DNA from: Vezdaea acicularis
Lineage: Eukaryota
Length of the DNA: 64,000 nt
Direction of reading: 5' to 3'
Assembly: GCA_026025075.1 (NCBI GenBank)
Contig: JAPEUI010000011.1
Location: 124,001 to 188,000 of the forward strand
Part shown: positions 33,709 to 41,721 of the stretch, in pieces
Layout: every line of letters starts with the position of its first letter
Numbering within the stretch: position 1 is the stretch's first letter
Made by a program: the position numbers and the translations under genes
Notes under the pieces: model-generated
Databases searched by the model: none
What the model was told of the DNA's origin: nothing
Seen by the model: only the letters and a program-made list of their open reading frames with translations

Positions 33709-36428
33709 CCCGCAGCTTTTGGAGATCATCACGCATTCCTCGTGTTGGGTCTAGCGATGGCGTTGCGAGGATACCATATGCTCGATCTATGGCTGGGGTC
33801 ATTCGGGTAGTTTAAACAAAGGGTAGAGTCTCTCAATAGAATACACTGGCTTCACGTAGAGTTAAACGCGATTTTCAGCCCTATTCCTAGGCTTGTGCTG
33901 GGGGTGAAAAGGATAAACAATGCTAAAGGTAACTTACCTTATATGAACATTGCAATTGTAAGAGATCAGTCCATATTTTGATGAATTAATTAAACGTTGG
34001 CTGACTGAAATCCCGACGTTCTCCCCTCGATATGGATTATATGGTTAAATTGCCCACCCATAGCCTGTGTCCTACGTCTAACCCATGATGAAGTTTCGGT
34101 CGAGTCAAGCGTGACAGGGAATTACAATTCTTCACAAGCGGTATCTTGACACAATTGTCGAACCCATGATTGAGAAACGAGGAAACATATAAATTGAGAT
34201 TATTCTATTTTGAGCTTCCTCTTGGTTACTTTATGCACGTGTAGGTTAGGGTTCAGTCACGGGATCCCTTCTCTACTGGGAAGTTACGGAGGTACTTTTT
34301 CCACACCAACCCTCAATTGTGTCACAGAAAATCTGCTGCAACAACGAAAAACTCATTTACTAAAAGAGAAAATACCGCCGTGGGGCCTGTGACATCTCTC
34401 CACCCACATGGGTAACATAATCGAGGAAACTCTACAACCAATTCTCGAAATACCCGGTGATCGCATTGGCCACCGGCCTAGAGTAGCAGTCGAGTGCGTG
34501 GGGACACTATTGAAAAAAAAAGATTCCTTCCTCCTGCTGTCTTCAGCCAACGCTACGTATGATCCTCCCGTCTTTTCTGTGTTCAGCTTTCGAAGGCTTT
34601 CATGAAGTACCGCTAAGGGTCTGGGCTCGATAGCGTTGTCAGGACGGAGATGGATTTGCCAGAACAGCCTGAGAGCTGAGCCATGGTTTCGTCAGTCACT
34701 GCCAAGCATAGAGCCAATTACGCAGGCAACGCAGAGGAAAGGTTTAGTGCCTGTGCGGCTAAGAGGCCCCGAAAGCCCTTCTATGCACGTCTGGAATCTC
34801 CCGCATTCTTTCCTACGTGAACATTTTCGGAGAAAGACTATGACCATTCGAGCGACCAACAGCAAGAACTCTGACGATGCACGTACCGAAAAACTTCACT
34901 GTGGGAGAGCAACCGAAGTCGCTTGGCCCGGTTTTCGCCTCGTGCCGCTTCGCGCGTGGCATGCCGCTTTTCTGGGCAAAGATTGCACGTCTGCACGGCA
35001 TGACTGGCGGACTAACGAAGTGTCAATTGGATGATCCGGCCCAGGCCTTTTCGGTGCTTGCGAATCGAAGCAGGACGGCTTAGTCCACCTGGCTTTCGAC
35101 TACGATCCCATTCGCCAATCGAGCGGTAAATCTGGGGGAAACATGGGGTCTTCTTCCAGCCATCTTACTGGATAAAGCATGAGGCCGGCTCTGTACCTTA
35201 CGCCACTTTTCTCCATCTTTTTTCGGTTTTTTGCTTCCTATCAGCCCGCGGCGACTCGGACGAAGGGCTAATCATGGGCGCATGGCTGGAGAAACAGAGC
35301 AGGATTCAGCATCACACCATCTCTGGCCATCTTTCCTCAAAAATTTTCCACACACTCTCGGTAGGGTGTCAAGCAGAAAGGTTGTCGCAGATTCTGCTGT
35401 TCGAATGAAGCCGAGATGTCGAGTCCAAACTCTGATAAGGCCAATTTTCGACATTCCATGACCGCCCTGGCAATATTCTCCGTACAAGTTGATGGCTCTG
35501 CACCACAAGCCACCAGAGTGCAATCCGGCTGAATGCTACAGTAGCTTTCTTGAAGCGCGCGGAAGAGATTGGGTGACCACGCGCACAGGCCACGTTCTGA
35601 ATGCCTGCTGCATGCCGATCCGTGCCTGACTACTGATCAACCGTCCAAAGGGAATATGCTCGATAGAGGAAGTAAGTGCACACCAACTCAGTACCTCAAC
35701 AGCGCGGCACATCTGACGGCGATTTGGCAGACCAGATGGCAGGTAGTGAATAACGGGTTCCCGGTTCGCGGTACTGCCGTTATCTGCTTGAAGCAAAGCA
35801 AGATGAGGCTGAAATAGGCCTTAACAGCTCGTAGATCGGGCCAAGGGCTTACGTAGATGTTCAGGACTCTAACGTCTGAAGCAGATGTTTCTATCGACAG
35901 ATACGAGAAAGAACGTCGATCGCACGAATGCCATAATCACGTGAGTACGGCCTTGCTCGAATCAGGATCGGAACAGGATTGGTCGGCCACGAAGAGATAA
36001 TGCAGGTCATTCGAGACGGCTCGTTTCACGCCACGCACGGAGGGAGGACGGCAACGGCAATCACCCCCCGCAGCAGGCAGAGGAAGAATGCCAAGCTTTT
36101 CTTTGCTGCAGGGCTGCTTCATTTTTGGCCACCGTACGGTCAAGATGCAAATGGTCGGTCCGGGATTATGGTGCAGGTCCTAGGAAGAACGGAATGCATA
36201 GAACATCGCCTCGTGCGTAGTCCCTCTCATCGGATTGATACAGATGCCCGCTCGCCACGGGTGACGGACAGGCTTCCCTGCAGGAGAATCTCGTGGAACG
36301 GATGCAAGCTGTGGTGTCCGTGTTTCGGCAGGGTTTCTCATCGATCTCGCAAAGGCTGAAGTCGAAGCCATGCTAGACTATTACTCGGCATCCTTTCTCC
36401 GTCCGCGGCTTCTTGAAGCCACGCGATT

Positions 36429-36468
36429 GTCCTCAGTCCTCGGTCCTCAGTCCTCAGTCCTCAGTCCT
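36429..36468 (+). repeat. Imperfect 7-bp tandem repeat (GTCCTCA/G)
   Basis: gtcctca gtcctcg gtcctca gtcctca gtcctca gtcct read directly. Confidence 0.85.
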
Positions 36469-38174
36469 ATGCATGACTTCGATCGGCCGCTCTCTCTCGG
36501 CACGGGCAGCCATCGCAGAGGGTTAGAACCGACGTCGCACGTGCGGCAGGGGCTCGCGGACGGCTCCCCAGTGCACGCCACATGCGGGGCACGGTAGCAG
36601 CAACGTTGGCGTGTCGTTAGGCGGGGCAGAGAAATTTCTTCACTCGCCTAAGTCGTCTGGAGGGTTAACAAGAACGCTGGGCATGCTCAAGACGCCGCGC
36701 CCCTCCTTCACCAATTGACTTTGAGTTTGACTTTGGCTTTGAGCGCCGGTGCCGTTCCGTCTGTCAGGGACGGCACTGACAGCGAGCAGCCAGCGACGCT
36801 CTCGCCCGCGACTGGACGGCGACCGAGCTCCTCCGTGCGAAGGGGGCGGGCGGCGAAGGTGCAGCGTGCGATCCCAGATCTGGCTGCAACGCTAATTGAG
36901 CCGCGATCGGGGTTTCCGATCCTTCGGCCGCACGCTAACGGCCTCCCCACCACCGACACAACAACGACAACGCGCCCTCTGCCCGCCCGTCAGTCCCATC
37001 AAGCCTTCGCAGGATGAATAGACGTCGTCCAGCCGCGAGCGATGGCCTCCCTTCTCCAATATGACGAGATCGCACCAGTACTTTATCCGCACGCCCCCAA
37101 CCCGGCATTGTCTTGGTCGCCCAGCGTGGAACTACTGTAGCTCGTCGCCCGGCCTTTTTTGCTTTCTGCTTGCTGCAGAACATTGGGCAAAAAGGTGGGG
37201 AGGGGCACACCAGCCAAGAGCAGAAACTCGACGCCACACAACGGCCTTTTTCATCCAGCCGAAAAGTATCCTGCCCGTCCCATTCGCCGTGTCGTCGACG
37301 GGATTGTCCTCCGTCGTGCGGATGCGTGCCAGACAGAGGCTACGAGGTGTGCTCGGGGGAATTGGAGACGAGTTGATCCGCCAGACATGGTCTCTGGCTG
37401 TTCCCGATCAGCGGTGAACCAGTGTATCTCGGATAAGGAATGGGGCCGCATCGCCTCTGAACACTCAACACGAACGACGCGAGAAGGACGGAGGGAGCGA
37501 GCAGAGAGCAGAGAGCAGGAAGTAGAGAGCATCTCCGCCGACAGCGCCGTCTCAAAGTCCTTCGCTCGAACGTGGCTCTCTGTTGATTCCAGCCGGCATT
37601 TAACCCGCCGGCTTGCGCGACTAGCGTCGAACTATCAATTCCGTCATTCCCCTTGGCCGGCCGGTGGGTTCTGGCCGCAACAGCACTAGTCTCTGTGCGG
37701 GGAGACCGCTGGTGCTGCGCAGCTGTCGCAAAGGGGGCATGGGAGAGCTCGTGGATCCTGCAATCAACGATGCAAGCCACCTGCAGACCCATCCCGACCT
37801 CCACGCCGTTTTCTTTCCTTTTCCACCTCGAGCTGGGGCTGGCGAGACGGCACAGAACCCTCGTCGTCGACCCATGGCTGGTCCGGCCATTCAGCCATTC
37901 ATTTGTCTTTGGAGATGCCGGCGCTGAAACCTCGCCATGCGACGGAATACTTGAACGACCGTCTCCCTCACCTTCTAGACATTTTGGAGCAGACGTCTAA
38001 CAGCTCTCCGTCTCCGGAACACTCTCGGGCTTGGCCAACTCATATCGTGGGACTCTCATTGTGGGAGACTGCTTCGTTCACTAATACTACCCTGCATCGT
38101 ACCTCCCTCCATTCGGCCCTAACTACCTCCACCTTTCCCACTATCGCGAGCTTCACTGCCCAGCACATCTCCCT

Positions 38175-38660
38175 TGACGGTTGATATCTCGCGAGACTCA
38201 ATTGATCATGACGAACAGCTCGGCCCTCCTCGGCCACCCGCCAAATACACAGCGTGATGTTTATATCCTGCACTACCTCTTCAAGGGCAAGGTCCCCAAG
38301 ATTGCCCCGCCCCCAGGATACGTCTATGAGACGCGAGGCCCCGGGATGGCCGCCGGCATCTCCGTCGCCATCTTCCTCGTGTTGCTTTTCACCAGCGCAA
38401 GACTCTCGGTTCGAATTTTCCACAAGAGGATGAAGTTCGGCGCTGATGACTGGTTCATCATTCCTGCGGCAGTAAGTGACTCTTCCCTTTCCTCTGGCAT
38501 TCAGAAGAGCATATGCCGTCTGCTTGTCTCATGAGACGCGAGCTGGATGGCAAGGAGGCGATGAAGCATGTAAAGCACCACGCTGTGTATTTGGCGGGTG
38601 GCCGAGGAGGGCCGAGCTGTTCGTCATGATCAATTGAGTCTCGCGAGATGTCAACCGTCA
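38175..38660. repeat. Long inverted repeat: 38175-38256 vs 38579-38660 (82 bp, 2 arms, 1 mismatch) plus ~25 bp degenerate inward extension
   Basis: The reverse complement of 38579-38660 equals 38175-38256 except T/C at 38185, which is a G-U pair in plus-strand RNA. Confidence 0.97.
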
Positions 38661-39779
38661 GAAAAGGAATACATCGCTAACGCTTTGATCGTTTAGTTGC
38701 TCCAAATCGCGTACCTCGCAACTATCATCGTGCGCGTGCCTCGCTCCGGCGCCGGAAAGCATCTTTGGGATGTTCATTATGAAGAGTTGAACGGCTTCTA
38801 TACCGTGAGCTCCATTTGACTGATACTCCTCTACCGAGCTTGGCTGACGTCCTTTGCTAGATTGGCAATGTTGGGCAGGTCATTTTCTATGCTGGAGTCG
38901 CTTGTACCAAGATTTCGATTACCCTATTCAACCGCCGACTGACGGGCATCTCGTCAAAACCATGGATGATGACGCATTACGCCTTCCTCGCTCTGCTTGG
39001 CGTCTGGTTAATTCTGGCGGTCTTCATGAACACCTTCCAATGCAGCCCCACCATCTACCGCTTCAACTACTTTTTGCGTGGGCAAAACCCGAAGGCGTAC
39101 AAGTGCTGGGATCCGGCGAAGCTTGCGAACGCTTTTGCGATCTCCAATGCCGTACAAGGTCAGTCCGGCCGTTTCTTTTACATCTGCTTTCTCTGAGATT
39201 CTGTTGCTGACTGTATTCGTAGATTTCATGTTGTTGACCGTCCCCATCATCGTCTTGTGGCGCGTTAAGCTTCCCATCATGACCAAGGCTCGCCTCATGG
39301 TCCTCTTCGCCATCGGCACCGTTTCGTGCGCTTGCGCCGCCATGCGCGTCGTCGCCCAAGGCTATAACACCTTCGACTACACTTGGAGCTTCCCGCAGAC
39401 GATCGGCTGGACGATCGGCGACGGCGTGCTCGGGGTCATCGTCGCCTCGCTGCCTGCGCTCAACACGCTGCTTGACATCGTCTGGCCCTCCAGCTGGAGC
39501 AAGCGCAGCCGCACCTTCGGCTCTGTCGAGAAGAGCTACGGCTCCAACAGCACCGGCGACCGCTCCGTCGTCGAGGCCACCCCCACCACCGCCGAGGGCA
39601 TCCGCCGCCGCGACGAGGTCGAGCTCGGCTACTTCCCCGCCGAGGACATGTCCAAGGAGAGACTCCCGCCCGGCCAGATCCCCGAGAGCCTCCAGGCCGA
39701 TGGCAAGAAGAGCGATGTCTACTGGTCGAGCCGCGTCGTCGGCAAGAACGGCTCCAAGGGATCGGCGGACAGCGTTTAG
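38208..39779 (+). CDS. PTH11-like/fungal rhodopsin-domain 7TM integral membrane protein (no CFEM domain seen)
   Basis: ARLSVR..FGADDWFI, GAGKHLWDV, KISI, FQCSP, DFMLLTVPIIVLWRVKL..KARLMVLFAIG and VIVASLPAL motifs. Introns 38472-38696, ~38805-38860 and ~39159-39221. Confidence 0.9.
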
Positions 39780-40333
39780 CTTTTCTCTCTCCGCCCTTTT
39801 TTCCTTTTCTTATTTAAAAGAAAAGCGCGCTCTGTGTGTTTGCCCCCGCTCTCGCGCGCGAGTCATGACGGGCGTCTAGTTTTAGAGTACTGATGGCGCC
39901 CAGTGGGCTGCCTTCCCCCTCTCCCCCCCGTCATGTGTTTCTGTACATGACGATTCTTTCACGAGCGAGCGGCTTCGGGGCATGAACGCGTTTCCTTGCG
40001 GCTGTTAGGCGTCCGTTGTGCTGTGTTCTTCTTTTGGTTTGTCGTTCCGTTGCCCGCCACCTCTCAGTGGTGCTCGTTCATACTTTACATACCCCTACTA
40101 CTATACTATACCGTGTCAATCGATGTTTTTCAAAAAGAGCAGGGTGTCTGGTTGTTAGGGGGTTTTCTTTTTGGTGATGTATGGAAGGAGGCGAGAGAGC
40201 GAGGGGGAGGTGGGGTTGTATATGTATGAATGACACCAAGTGCAAAGGGTGTATGCGCAATGTAGTAATCGAATGAATGGAACATATGTCTCTTACATCG
40301 GTGTATGAGCGTGCTTTATCGTCTTGAAAGCCT

Positions 40334-40372
40334 CCCTCCTCCTCCTCTCCTCTCCTCTCCTCTCCTCTCTTC
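40334..40372 (+). repeat. CT-rich microsatellite (CCT/CTCTC repeats)
   Basis: ccctcctcctcctctcctctcctctcctctcctctcttcc in the low-complexity intergenic region between the two convergent genes. Confidence 0.8.
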
Positions 40373-41721
40373 CCCCGCGCTTGCCAATATTGACATCACC
40401 AGCTCATGCAGAGGCTTGGTCGGGTTATATACACACTCTCCCCTCCCCTTCCCCCCTCTCCTCCCTCTGCCCAACTACTATATCATTCACTGCCTGCCTG
40501 CCCGCCCGCCAGCACATCACCCCAACGCCTCTCCCCGGCCCCGGAATCCTGGGGTATGCCTCTCCCGCCTTTCCCGCCCCGCCGATCGCGGATCCGTGGA
40601 TCACCCGCCCCTCGCGCCAGTACATTTGTATGTTTTCCTGCTCTCAGCCTTTCCCCCCCCCCGCCGGCGGTCCTCCTCGCACTCACTGGGGCGGAGCACA
40701 GCTTTGAAGGAATGGGTATGGTTGGGGCGTGTGGCGCTGGGCTGCAGGACTGCCTTTCCCGTGTTTGGTATGAGTTTCGGATTTTCATTGTTTATTTCTT
40801 GATTGGATGGGGAGGGGGTGGGGGCATGATTCACCACGAAGAAGAATTCGACATCACTGGGTTGCAAGGGTTACGGTATTAGCAAGCGGATGGATTTAGT
40901 TGGCGGTTCTGTGGCTACGACGTCTTGCCCCCGAGTGGTACTCTCGCGAGTGGTTTTTTTGTGTATGAGCTAGCCCTGTTAAAATCCCCTTTTCCTGTCC
41001 ACTAAATGCTTTCAGAGCTCCCCTCGAGCTTTGGGCTACGGCCTGAAAGCTCGAGACTGAACCCCCAACCAAGTCATGCGCTCATGACTCGCGGAGGACA
41101 TTGTTACGCCCCAGTAACGTGTCTGATGATACAAGCCAGGCCAGGCCAGGCCATGCTGAGTTGCCTCTCCCGCTGTCAAACGCCTCCGCTCTCTGGCCAG
41201 AAAGGGGGGTACGTCATGCAGGATACCGTATCAGACACGATTAGCACGCCCAACGGAAACCCTTCGACAGCGTGGCTCCACTATGAAAAGCCAGGTGAGG
41301 GCCAGGCTTCCAATTGGGCTCATCGACGCCCGTTTTTGGTGTGCTTGGGACAAGCTGAGGAGGTGGGGGCGCTCTTGTCTGCCTTATTGCACTCAGACAT
41401 TCTCATGTGTAGCTGCGTCGGTACGTGGCGCTAAGAGGGAAGGGTCTTGGCGATAGTGGTTGAGATCGGAGGAGTGAGTGGGGTTCGATGAGGCTCTGGG
41501 CTACATGGGGCGAGATGCTGGGAGGGCGGGAAAGGCAGATCGGAGATGTTGATGAGGCTGGTGGAGGATATAGGTGTCAGCAATATCGTCACACAGACAC
41601 AGACGCACACACACAGCAAGAGGAAAAAGGAAAGAGGCAACAAGAATCAACACCAACCTTCACATACTCTACACGACGGGCGAGGCACATCAGAACATCT
41701 TAACATTCCAGATCTCAAACG

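Follow-up and report, generated by a model that had tools for sequence, protein, structure and literature searches.

Intron 1 of a fungal rhodopsin-domain gene in Vezdaea acicularis carries a near-perfect reverse-complement copy of the start of the same gene, from its 5' leader through the ATG into the first codons. The repeat was found in a 64-kb window, which is the whole stretch of DNA (64,000 nt) that was analysed. It is best explained, in a reading that we hold with moderate confidence, as a one-off inverted micro-duplication, probably produced by a replication template switch before the split from a close relative, which has since been tolerated and has decayed near-neutrally with no selected function. 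We infer both the template-switch mechanism and the neutrality of the effect.

A single near-perfect inverted repeat joins the gene start to intron 1

The repeat search identified two 88-nt arms that are 97% complementary and lie 310 nt apart (Table 1). Ungapped comparison under the pairing rule i+j = 76835 showed three mismatches over the 88 positions, and the original prediction of an 82-nt stretch (38175-38256 against 38579-38660) with a single G-U difference was correct on this comparison. The 88-nt repeat is the sole near-perfect inverted repeat in the window: the only other inverted repeat of at least 28 nt within 3 kb, across the whole 64 kb, was a 28-nt pair at 79%. An 81-nt pattern from the left arm had two exact matches in the window, one on each strand, and none of 100 shuffles contained any match. 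No Rfam model matched the arms or the intron at gathering score in a search over 36000-41000, where the lone match with E of 1 or less, to a lncRNA model at 40343-40436, reached 27.4 bits against a cut-off of 55 and lies outside the feature.

The boundaries of the repeat are sharp, because neither flank is similar above chance. The inner flanks had 12 matches in 19 positions plus one gap, giving an anchored score of 3 that was reached by 481 of 3000 shuffles and by 274 of 3000 random 40-mers from the window, and their local inverted alignment was weak, with a score reached by 32 of 500 shuffles. For the outer flanks the anchored score was 0, and the local alignment score was reached by 403 of 500 shuffles. 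The decay of similarity over a further ~25 bp, which had been described earlier, is thus not above chance.

Table 1 Positions in the window of the host gene, the repeat arms and other intronic features
Feature	Position	Strand	Remarks
Left arm	38175..38262	+	33 nt 5' of ATG, start codon, codons 2-18, one base of codon 19
Right arm	38573..38660	+	reverse complement of left arm, within intron 1, ending 15 nt before the branch-site motif
Perfect core, 71 nt	38186-38256	+	pairs with 38579-38649
Mismatch	38185/38650		U-G wobble in RNA
Mismatch	38257/38578		A-C
Mismatch	38260/38575		U-G
Start codon	38208..38210	+	not 38209; inside predicted pre-mRNA duplex
Exon 1, 88 codons	38208..38471	+	57% identity to P0001 residues 1-88, gapless
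Intron 1, 225 nt, phase 0	38472..38696	+	donor GTAAGT 38472-38477; branch GCTAAC 38676-38681; acceptor AG 38695-38696
Exon 2	38697-38804	+	gene model
Intron 2, 56 nt	38805-38860	+	gene model
Exon 3	38861-39158	+	Fung_rhodopsin, E 1.3e-10 vs PF20684
Intron 3, 64 nt	39159-39222	+	gene model
Exon 4	39223-39779	+	Fung_rhodopsin, E 2.7e-13 vs PF20684
Short direct copy of exon-1 segment 38322-38350	38526..38551	+	score 29, reached by 0/500 shuffles; found post hoc, weak
Small extra hairpin	38514..38552	+	-21.1 kcal/mol, z -3.5, 0/200 shuffles; segment chosen after seeing the fold

The host gene encodes a PTH11-related protein in the broad sense

The gene product is a protein of 409 aa with a Fung_rhodopsin domain (PF20684), for which exons 3 and 4 both exceed the curated cut-off. 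The nearest proteins, P0001 (Sarcosagium) and P0002, both bear PF20684. The proposed gene model with its first intron was borne out by the alignment with P0001 on both sides of that intron, exon 2 picking up at residue 92 after the gapless alignment of exon 1 with residues 1-88. Intron 1 is, as had been noted, about four times the size of its two neighbours, and its donor, branch and acceptor signals are intact and in place.

PTH11 proper carries an N-terminal, cysteine-rich CFEM domain. A Pfam search with the 88 aa of exon 1 returned no family at E<=0.1, CFEM included, so the gene is PTH11-related only in a broad, CFEM-less sense. A protein search with exon 1 against longer proteins gave 41 candidates, none at E 0.001 or better.

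The repeat is carried by contigs of other runs and by a relative

Contigs from two moss-metagenome runs (X1 and X2), built with k=31 independently of the window's assembly, were compared with the window. Those of X1 covered 37600-38215, 38186-38256, 38227-38608 and 38620-39686, the layout expected of a k=31 graph in which an arm, a spacer and a second arm lie between two flanks. The core formed a separate 71-nt contig with no differences from the window and a depth of 15.7, which is 2.5-2.8 times that of the flanking contigs (5.56-6.2); since this exceeds twofold, a further (third) copy elsewhere is possible. A contig of X2 begins at 38620, the same point as in X1, and both junctions of the right arm with unique intron sequence were contained in X1 contigs and partly in those of X2. 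These contigs, from the same organism, are not simply the window's own assembly, because a few letters differ. An air-metagenome run (X5) contributed no more than 37998-38263 plus some unrelated pieces, at depth 2, and was uninformative on the right arm.

A relative (X6, organism A) is ~94% identical to the window upstream of the gene and 92.5% identical across it. One of its contigs (38251-39846) spans the whole of intron 1, arm included, with a single 1-nt insertion in the intron. Its right arm has 8 substitutions and no indel, and none of the substitutions in the intron stretch falls at the donor, the branch site or the acceptor. As the X1 and X2 contigs and the X6 contig carry the structure, the repeat is genuine, and the assembly fold-back that had been named as its possible undoing fails. 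Recombination between the arms could flip the 310-nt spacer, and k=31 contigs are blind to a flip across the 71-nt core.

The intronic arm is the derived copy

Homology of its codons to the N-terminus of P0001 (57% over 88 residues) and to that of the gene at locus L002, the start of which they resemble, marks the left arm as the native copy. Among the matches listed, none of five related metagenome loci (37-51% identity) had an inverted repeat of at least 16 nt, and in L001 and L002 the intron at this codon measures 55 nt and is free of the repeat. The absence from these five distant loci and the 55-nt intron indicate that the repeat is derived. From these sequence comparisons, the right arm is the derived copy and is older than the split from X6.

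We propose that an 88-nt piece (33 nt before the ATG, 18 codons and one base) was copied as its reverse complement into intron 1 of its own gene, landing about 400 nt downstream of its source, in an ancestor shared by this moss-associated ascomycete and a relative that differs from it at ~1 in 8 neutral sites. A replication template switch, in which the growing strand folds back on itself and uses nearby DNA as its template, would be the most likely route. One simple switch would not be sufficient for the extra length of the intron, because 137 nt remain when the arm is taken away, and perhaps it was part of a more complex, multi-switch event in which an intron of originally ~55 nt also grew to 225 nt. 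Passages in PMC8794818 and PMC10710096 describe template switching as a process that in a single step, often within an intron, generates perfect hairpins and reverse-complement copies, and part of PMC13100816 describes its expansion of imperfect inverted repeats in yeast. At the junctions themselves, the complementarity beside the inner junction (12/19 plus one gap) was not above chance, and the outgroups are too distant for a four-point reconstruction. Reported template-switch events are, by our impression, mostly much shorter than 88 nt.

After the duplication, the intronic copy would have drifted near the neutral rate, with selection acting on the splice signals and on the coding sequence. 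The unspliced transcript would fold into a very stable duplex of ~88 bp over the start codon that is tolerated by the cell, and any effect on expression, such as a mild self-dampening via dsRNA, would be a by-product rather than a selected device.

Folding predicts a duplex over the start codon in unspliced RNA

The arm-arm duplex in the pre-mRNA was predicted at -182.4 kcal/mol. The predicted probability that the AUG is unpaired was at most 0.001 in the pre-mRNA, compared with 0.15-0.60 once the 5' end is spliced. Bases 1-4 of the 5' splice site were predicted to be unpaired in the loop with a probability of 0.86-0.98. Folding therefore agrees with the original prediction of an unspliced transcript whose duplex buries the AUG and loops out the 5' splice site. 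The left arm, its first 33 nt included, is probably transcribed.

Such a fold raises the alternative of a selected cis-antisense device, in which ~88 bp of dsRNA would cover the 5' end and the AUG in unspliced RNA only; we regard it as unlikely. The putative device might act through self-siRNAs made by Dicer, through a translation block of intron-retaining RNA or through a lariat tethered to the mRNA, and would tie the output of a receptor-like gene to the speed of splicing. The predicted stability and the AUG that is essentially never unpaired in the pre-mRNA are what such a device would need, and hairpin RNAs are described in part of PMC3733888 as able to set off silencing in filamentous fungi. 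Two species, moreover, retain the full intron (225/226 nt) and the arm, which is free of indels. The repeat was, however, absent from all five distant relatives listed and is unique in the window.

The intronic arm diverges at about the neutral rate

Between the window and X6, the intronic arm differs at 8 of 88 sites (9.1%), the rest of the intron at 17 of 137 (12.4%) and third codon positions at 12 of 94 (12.8%). The arm was indistinguishable from the rest of the intron (p = 0.52) and from third positions (p = 0.48, both by Fisher tests), which suggests that it drifts near-neutrally, at about the neutral rate. Within 38297-38804 we saw 14 exon differences, 12 of them at third positions and 11 synonymous, so purifying selection has acted on the gene while it carried the repeat.

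At the two inner mismatches, the right arm of X6 bears the base that pairs with the window's left arm, and these mismatches are thus recent changes in the window's right arm rather than old decay. When changes were polarised by the window's left arm, 2 fell on the window's right arm and 6 on that of X6 (binomial p = 0.29). Scored against the same left arm, three of the six X6-specific changes keep a G-U pair and three break pairing unless compensated. The changes in the right arm of X6 include those at 38591, 38619, 38622, 38639 and 38655. The arms of X6 share no 31-mer, because an unbroken contig crosses each arm.

The two arms of the window differ at 3 positions against about 8 expected, with a Poisson P(<=3) of about 0.04 by hand calculation, an expectation that takes equal branches, a neutral divergence of ~12.5% and a left arm evolving at ~45% of that rate. 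This low divergence could reflect homogenisation, selection for pairing in this lineage, or a shorter branch, and the excess likeness (3 against 8) is a weak hint in favour of homogenisation or selection, as the original prediction had it. The argument then given, that a perfect core with a decayed flank implies one or the other, does not hold, as the flank similarity is not above chance, the inner mismatches are recent, the arm is near-neutral and the X6 arms are without a common 31-mer. The case for selection or ongoing homogenisation is weak.

For the cis-antisense device, these comparisons therefore cut both ways. The two arms of this gene resemble each other more closely than expected under a symmetric neutral model, and three of the six X6-specific changes retain G-U pairing with the window's left arm; but the arm diverges between species as fast as neutral sites, the other three changes break pairing unless compensated, the X6 arms no longer share a 31-mer, and the decayed-flank argument is lost. 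Rather unlikely, too, is an old neutral repeat whose arms have been kept alike by concerted evolution, through gene conversion or repeated template switching, with a functionless duplex. Parts of PMC13100816, PMC8604942 and PMC8794818 report that template switching homogenises imperfect arms, and such a process would account for the mere three mismatches in the window despite an origin before the split and for the fewer changes on the window's right arm than on that of X6. The 2:6 split is, however, not significant, the two inner mismatches are new changes left uncorrected, the X6 arms have diverged and nothing points to an older, larger repeat, given that the decayed flank is not significant. 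A splicing-gated hairpin, in which nascent or slowly spliced transcripts would form 88 bp of dsRNA covering the AUG and the cap-proximal leader, which is diced into small RNAs against the gene itself or holds the lariat on the mRNA and so exerts negative feedback linked to splicing kinetics, the low arm divergence then reflecting selection or conversion, seems quite improbable.

An RNA-mediated origin would have an antisense cDNA of the mRNA 5' end (a cap run-off) captured at a break in the intron, with 38175 as the transcription start. Transcription in filamentous fungi often starts directly after a C/T-rich tract, and capture of cDNA at chromosome breaks is known in yeast. The copy indeed begins 33 nt upstream of the ATG, just after such a tract (about 38100-38174), and ends sharply, but nothing sets this origin apart from a DNA template switch and the intron's short direct copy of an exon-1 segment is left unexplained, so that we consider it very improbable. 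An assembly fold-back, or a MITE whose terminal inverted repeats surround exon 1, is hardly credible: chimeric reads can make inverted repeats, and a layout of 88-nt arms flanking 310 nt is in outline like that of a small TIR element, but both right-arm junctions occur at normal depth in contigs of other runs and also in that of the relative, the interior is the host gene's conserved exon 1, the left arm encodes a conserved N-terminus, the flanks TCCCT and GAAAA are not a target-site duplication, and the window holds two arm copies only, with no multi-copy family.

Comparison with known systems

In the yeast RPL30/L32 and RPS14B pre-mRNAs, pairing between leader and intron regulates splicing through short structures, which mask the 5' splice site and are bound by the gene's own protein product. 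Leader-intron pairing before splicing is common to these genes and, by prediction, to ours, but here bases 1-4 of the 5' splice site are predicted to be left free and the stem arose by recent duplication. Plant ihpRNA constructs are engineered, intron-containing hairpins used for silencing. Like the predicted transcript of the gene described here, engineered intron-hairpin and fungal hairpin constructs, as partly described in PMC3733888, have sense and antisense arms in one transcript together with a spliceable intron. In those constructs the arms stay and the spacer is spliced out, whereas here splicing removes the antisense arm itself.

An inverted-duplication model for plant miRNA genes was reportedly proposed by Allen et al. 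in 2004. Young plant miRNA genes under this model, in the passages of PMC3237417 and PMC4211545 (miR163), are likewise inverted copies of part of a protein-coding gene, which form a long, near-perfect hairpin against their founder, and such founder-complementary hairpins, in plants and here, could be a source of self-targeting small RNAs. Both arms of such a plant gene lie at a locus away from the founder, on which they act in trans; in our gene the founder itself supplies one arm and its intron the other, so the duplex would exist only until splicing is complete. The internally symmetrical (stw)introns of Hypoxylaceae, with terminal inverted repeats of 45-55 nt (sections of PMC8469720), are also spliceosomal introns with long repeats that could form dsRNA, but both of their repeats sit at the intron ends and they belong to a proliferating multi-copy family, whereas here one arm is outside the intron and the other is a copy of the host gene. 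A symmetrical (stw)intron or introner-like element was rejected, as one arm lies in the 5' leader and exon 1 and the two are not both at the intron termini.

The closest likeness in origin would be to template-switch hairpins (Monttinen & Loytynoja for the first two papers cited here), which in passages of PMC8794818, PMC10710096 and PMC13100816 are reverse-complement copies in cis with an instantly perfect stem, and can lie in the intron of a host gene in sense-strand position, hence transcribed with it. Unlike in those passages, one arm here consists of the gene's leader, its ATG and the codons that follow, and the stem of 88 bp and the loop of 310 nt are long by our impression. Keyword searches of open-access full text found no natural case of a gene with its own start region antisense in its own intron. 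If it is a relic, the repeat would be a clean natural example of a single local inverted duplication giving a gene a very long self-complementary stem, which persists apparently harmlessly across speciation in a short-intron fungus; it would be a useful, though not a surprising, data point for template-switch mutagenesis and intron growth. Should the stem be in use, engineered intron-hairpin silencing constructs would have a natural counterpart in this gene, and splicing would be coupled to translation or RNAi in fungi by a new route.

Other features of intron 1

Folding of introns 2 and 3 (56 and 64 nt) was unremarkable, and no short inverted repeats were reported within intron 1 at seed 6. 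The spacer part of intron 1 contains the short direct copy and the small extra hairpin listed in Table 1. The palindrome GTCTCATGAGAC lies at 38526-38537, inside the short direct copy, and an exact 12-mer is shared between 38531-38542 and exon 1 at 38326-38337.

Inverted repeat at the start of the PTH11-related gene

We found that the start of the PTH11-related gene recurs as its reverse complement inside intron 1. In the repeat search the two arms matched over 88 nt (97%) at a spacing of 310 nt, and the ungapped comparison located three mismatches and a perfect core of 71 nt, which confirms the near-perfect antisense copy of the original prediction. The 81-nt left-arm pattern had two exact matches in the window, one on each strand, and none in 100 shuffles. 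No second comparable inverted repeat was present among pairs of at least 28 nt within 3 kb in the 64-kb window, where the sole further pair was 28 nt long and 79% identical.

Positions of the inverted repeat and its host gene (window coordinates)
Feature	Position	Remarks
Left arm	38175-38262	
Right arm	38573-38660	
Perfect core (left arm)	38186-38256	71 nt
Arm mismatches	38185/38650, 38257/38578, 38260/38575	
Start codon	38208	ATG
Exons 1-4	38208-38471, 38697-38804, 38861-39158, 39223-39779	409 codons in total
Intron 1		225 nt
Intron 1 donor	38472	GTAAGT, intact
Intron 1 branch site	38676-38681	GCTAAC, intact
Intron 1 acceptor	38695-38696	AG, intact
Intron 2		56 nt
Intron 3		64 nt

Exons 3 and 4 matched the Pfam Fung_rhodopsin domain and exon 1 had no Pfam match, leaving the gene without a CFEM domain. 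The nearest database protein was P0001, a hypothetical protein of 407 aa from a Sarcosagium campestre MAG (66% over exon 3), followed by a Vezdaea aestivalis protein (49%). Because residues 1-88 of P0001 align without gaps to exon 1 and exon 2 resumes at residue 92, the position of intron 1 is fixed where it had been predicted, and its splice signals were likewise undamaged in the sequence. P0001 also carries about 19 additional residues (approximately 125-143) exactly at the intron 2 site of the window, opening with a similar V-S-S, and its annotation probably retained intron 2 unspliced. In the ~4.4 kb upstream of the gene (33750-38200), all plus-strand stop-to-stop frames were at most 182 aa, a long gene-poor stretch by the standard of this window.

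The repeat in contigs of other sequencing runs

Sequencing runs sharing 31-mers with the locus comprised four moss metagenomes of one study (X1-X4), an air metagenome (X5) and a close relative, organism A (X6); the contigs of four runs were compared over 37600-39900. X1 contigs covered 37600-38215, 38227-38608 and 38620-39686 (depths 5.56-6.2), with a 71-nt piece, 38186-38256, at depth 15.7. This pattern is exactly what a k=31 graph gives for an inverted repeat, running from flank through arm, spacer and inverted arm to flank, with breaks one k-mer past each arm mismatch and a roughly doubled depth of the common core. One X2 contig began at 38620, as in X1, and another (38285-38600) extended from the spacer into the right arm. 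Each contig of the same organism in X1 and X2 departs from the window at 1-3 letters, which shows that these contigs are not a mere copy of its assembly; coming from a single study, the two runs count as one independent source. The X1 graph with its core depth, together with the X2 contigs, rules out an assembly artefact, and the fold-back named as a risk in the original prediction was not found, the repeat being present in both runs.

The X1 core stood at 2.5-2.8 times the flank depth, not 2 times, and a third core copy may exist at another genomic site or in a co-occurring strain. Contigs of X5 (record 17) and X6 (record 19) ended 2-3 nt beyond the left arm's inner end at 38263, and the next X6 contig began at 38251, overlapping by ~16 nt instead of k-1. 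These ends may be a coincidence or a local graph feature.

Predicted folding of the pre-mRNA

Folding of 38100-38760, which presumes a transcription start upstream of 38175, gave -323.5 kcal/mol (z=-18, 20 shuffles) with the arms paired end to end, and the duplex of both arms alone gave -182.4 kcal/mol. The predicted unpaired probability of the AUG was at most 0.001 in the pre-mRNA vs 0.15-0.60 in the spliced 5' end, the first four bases of the donor remained unpaired (0.86-0.98), and the bases directly after the branch A were partly open. By these folds, the unspliced transcript would bury its AUG in a duplex with the donor in a loop, as originally proposed; the cis-antisense role attached to that structure is not supported by the available comparative data and seems unlikely.

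Presence in relatives and origin of the intronic arm

Relative to the window, organism A had 38 differences in 664 nt upstream (~94% identity) and 119 in 1596 nt across the gene (92.5%). A single contig of it (38251-39846) spans all of intron 1, with one 1-nt insertion (behind 38484) and an indel-free right arm, so the repeat is older than the divergence of the two fungi. The ortholog check that had been suggested found the repeat in this close relative and not further away: an inverted repeat of at least 16 nt within 800 nt was found in none of five metagenome loci chosen, among the matches listed, by exon-1 products 37-51% identical. Two of these loci, L001 and L002, carry a 55-nt intron at the codon where the window has intron 1. 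Since the N-terminal peptide of the L002 product closely resembles that of the window and P0001 aligns to exon 1, the left arm is native and was copied into the intron.

Three papers describe replication template switching: one event suffices to copy neighbouring sequence as its reverse complement and to form a perfect hairpin (PMC8794818), hairpins newly born in this way sit for the most part in introns of host genes on the sense strand (PMC10710096), and in yeast imperfect inverted repeats are expanded by the process (PMC13100816). A replication template switch probably made the intronic arm, a case that fits this published picture. Past 38262/38573, the best anchored alignment had 12/19 matches with one gap (score 3), equalled by 481/3000 shuffles and 274/3000 random window 40-mers, and the outer flank scored 0. 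With flank scores not above chance, the boundaries are sharp, as expected of a single event, and the decayed flank once described around a perfect core is not confirmed.

We lean towards the feature being a tolerated, slowly decaying inverted micro-duplication. Two post hoc findings hint at a more complex, multi-switch event: intron segment 38526-38551 is a short direct copy of exon-1 38322-38350 (score 29, 0/500 shuffles) with an exact 12-mer and a 12-nt palindrome, GTCTCATGAGAC, and a small hairpin lies upstream of the big arm at 38514-38552 (-21.1 kcal/mol, z=-3.5, 0/200 shuffles; segment picked after viewing the fold). Without the right arm, intron 1 is still 137 nt. An RNA-mediated origin, in which a cDNA of the mRNA 5' end was captured, predicts a transcription start at ~38175 and appears very improbable. 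A MITE is excluded, as conserved exon 1 forms the interior and a target-site duplication is absent.

The repeat works like a template-switch-born intronic hairpin. In outline it resembles both engineered hairpin constructs (PMC3733888) and the path by which young plant miRNA genes arise from inverted duplications (PMC3237417, PMC4211545). Membership of the symmetrical (stw)intron family of Hypoxylaceae (PMC8469720) is excluded, since one of the arms is not intronic. No Rfam family matched the repeat, and a limited keyword search of open-access text returned no natural example of a gene with a copy of its start region antisense in its own intron.

Selection, homogenisation or drift

Positions were compared for 40 of the 158 differences between the window and organism A, apparently the complete set for 38297-38810, in one contig. 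The right arm differed at 8/88 sites (9.1%), the rest of intron 1 at 17/137 (12.4%; Fisher p=0.52) and third codon positions at 12/94 (12.8%; p=0.48). Of the 14 exon differences in this interval, 12 were third-position and 11 synonymous, indicating that purifying selection acts on the repeat-bearing gene. At 38575 and 38578 the X6 right arm carries the base pairing with the window's left arm, so the two inner mismatches arose newly in the right arm of the window. With the window left arm as reference, X6-side changes occurred at 38591, 38619, 38622, 38625, 38639 and 38655, three leaving G-U pairing possible and three not. Because an unbroken contig crosses each arm, the X6 arms have no common 31-mer. 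Ongoing homogenisation or selection is therefore unsupported by the available comparative data and seems unlikely, the arm diverging like the rest of the intron and the flank matching at chance level.

One comparison cuts the other way and counts against plain drift: despite their pre-split age, the window arms differ at 3 sites vs ~8 expected (Poisson P(<=3) ~0.04, a hand calculation assuming equal branches, neutral divergence of ~12.5% and evolution of the left arm at ~45% of that rate). A shorter window-lineage branch would remove this tension; right-arm changes numbered 2 in the window and 6 in X6 (p=0.29, not significant).

The 664 nt of 37600-38263, left arm included, differed from X6 by 5.7%, with an 11-nt deletion at 37717 in addition. 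This divergence is roughly half of the neutral rate of the intron and third codon positions, and the promoter/leader region, or something else in this stretch, seems constrained.
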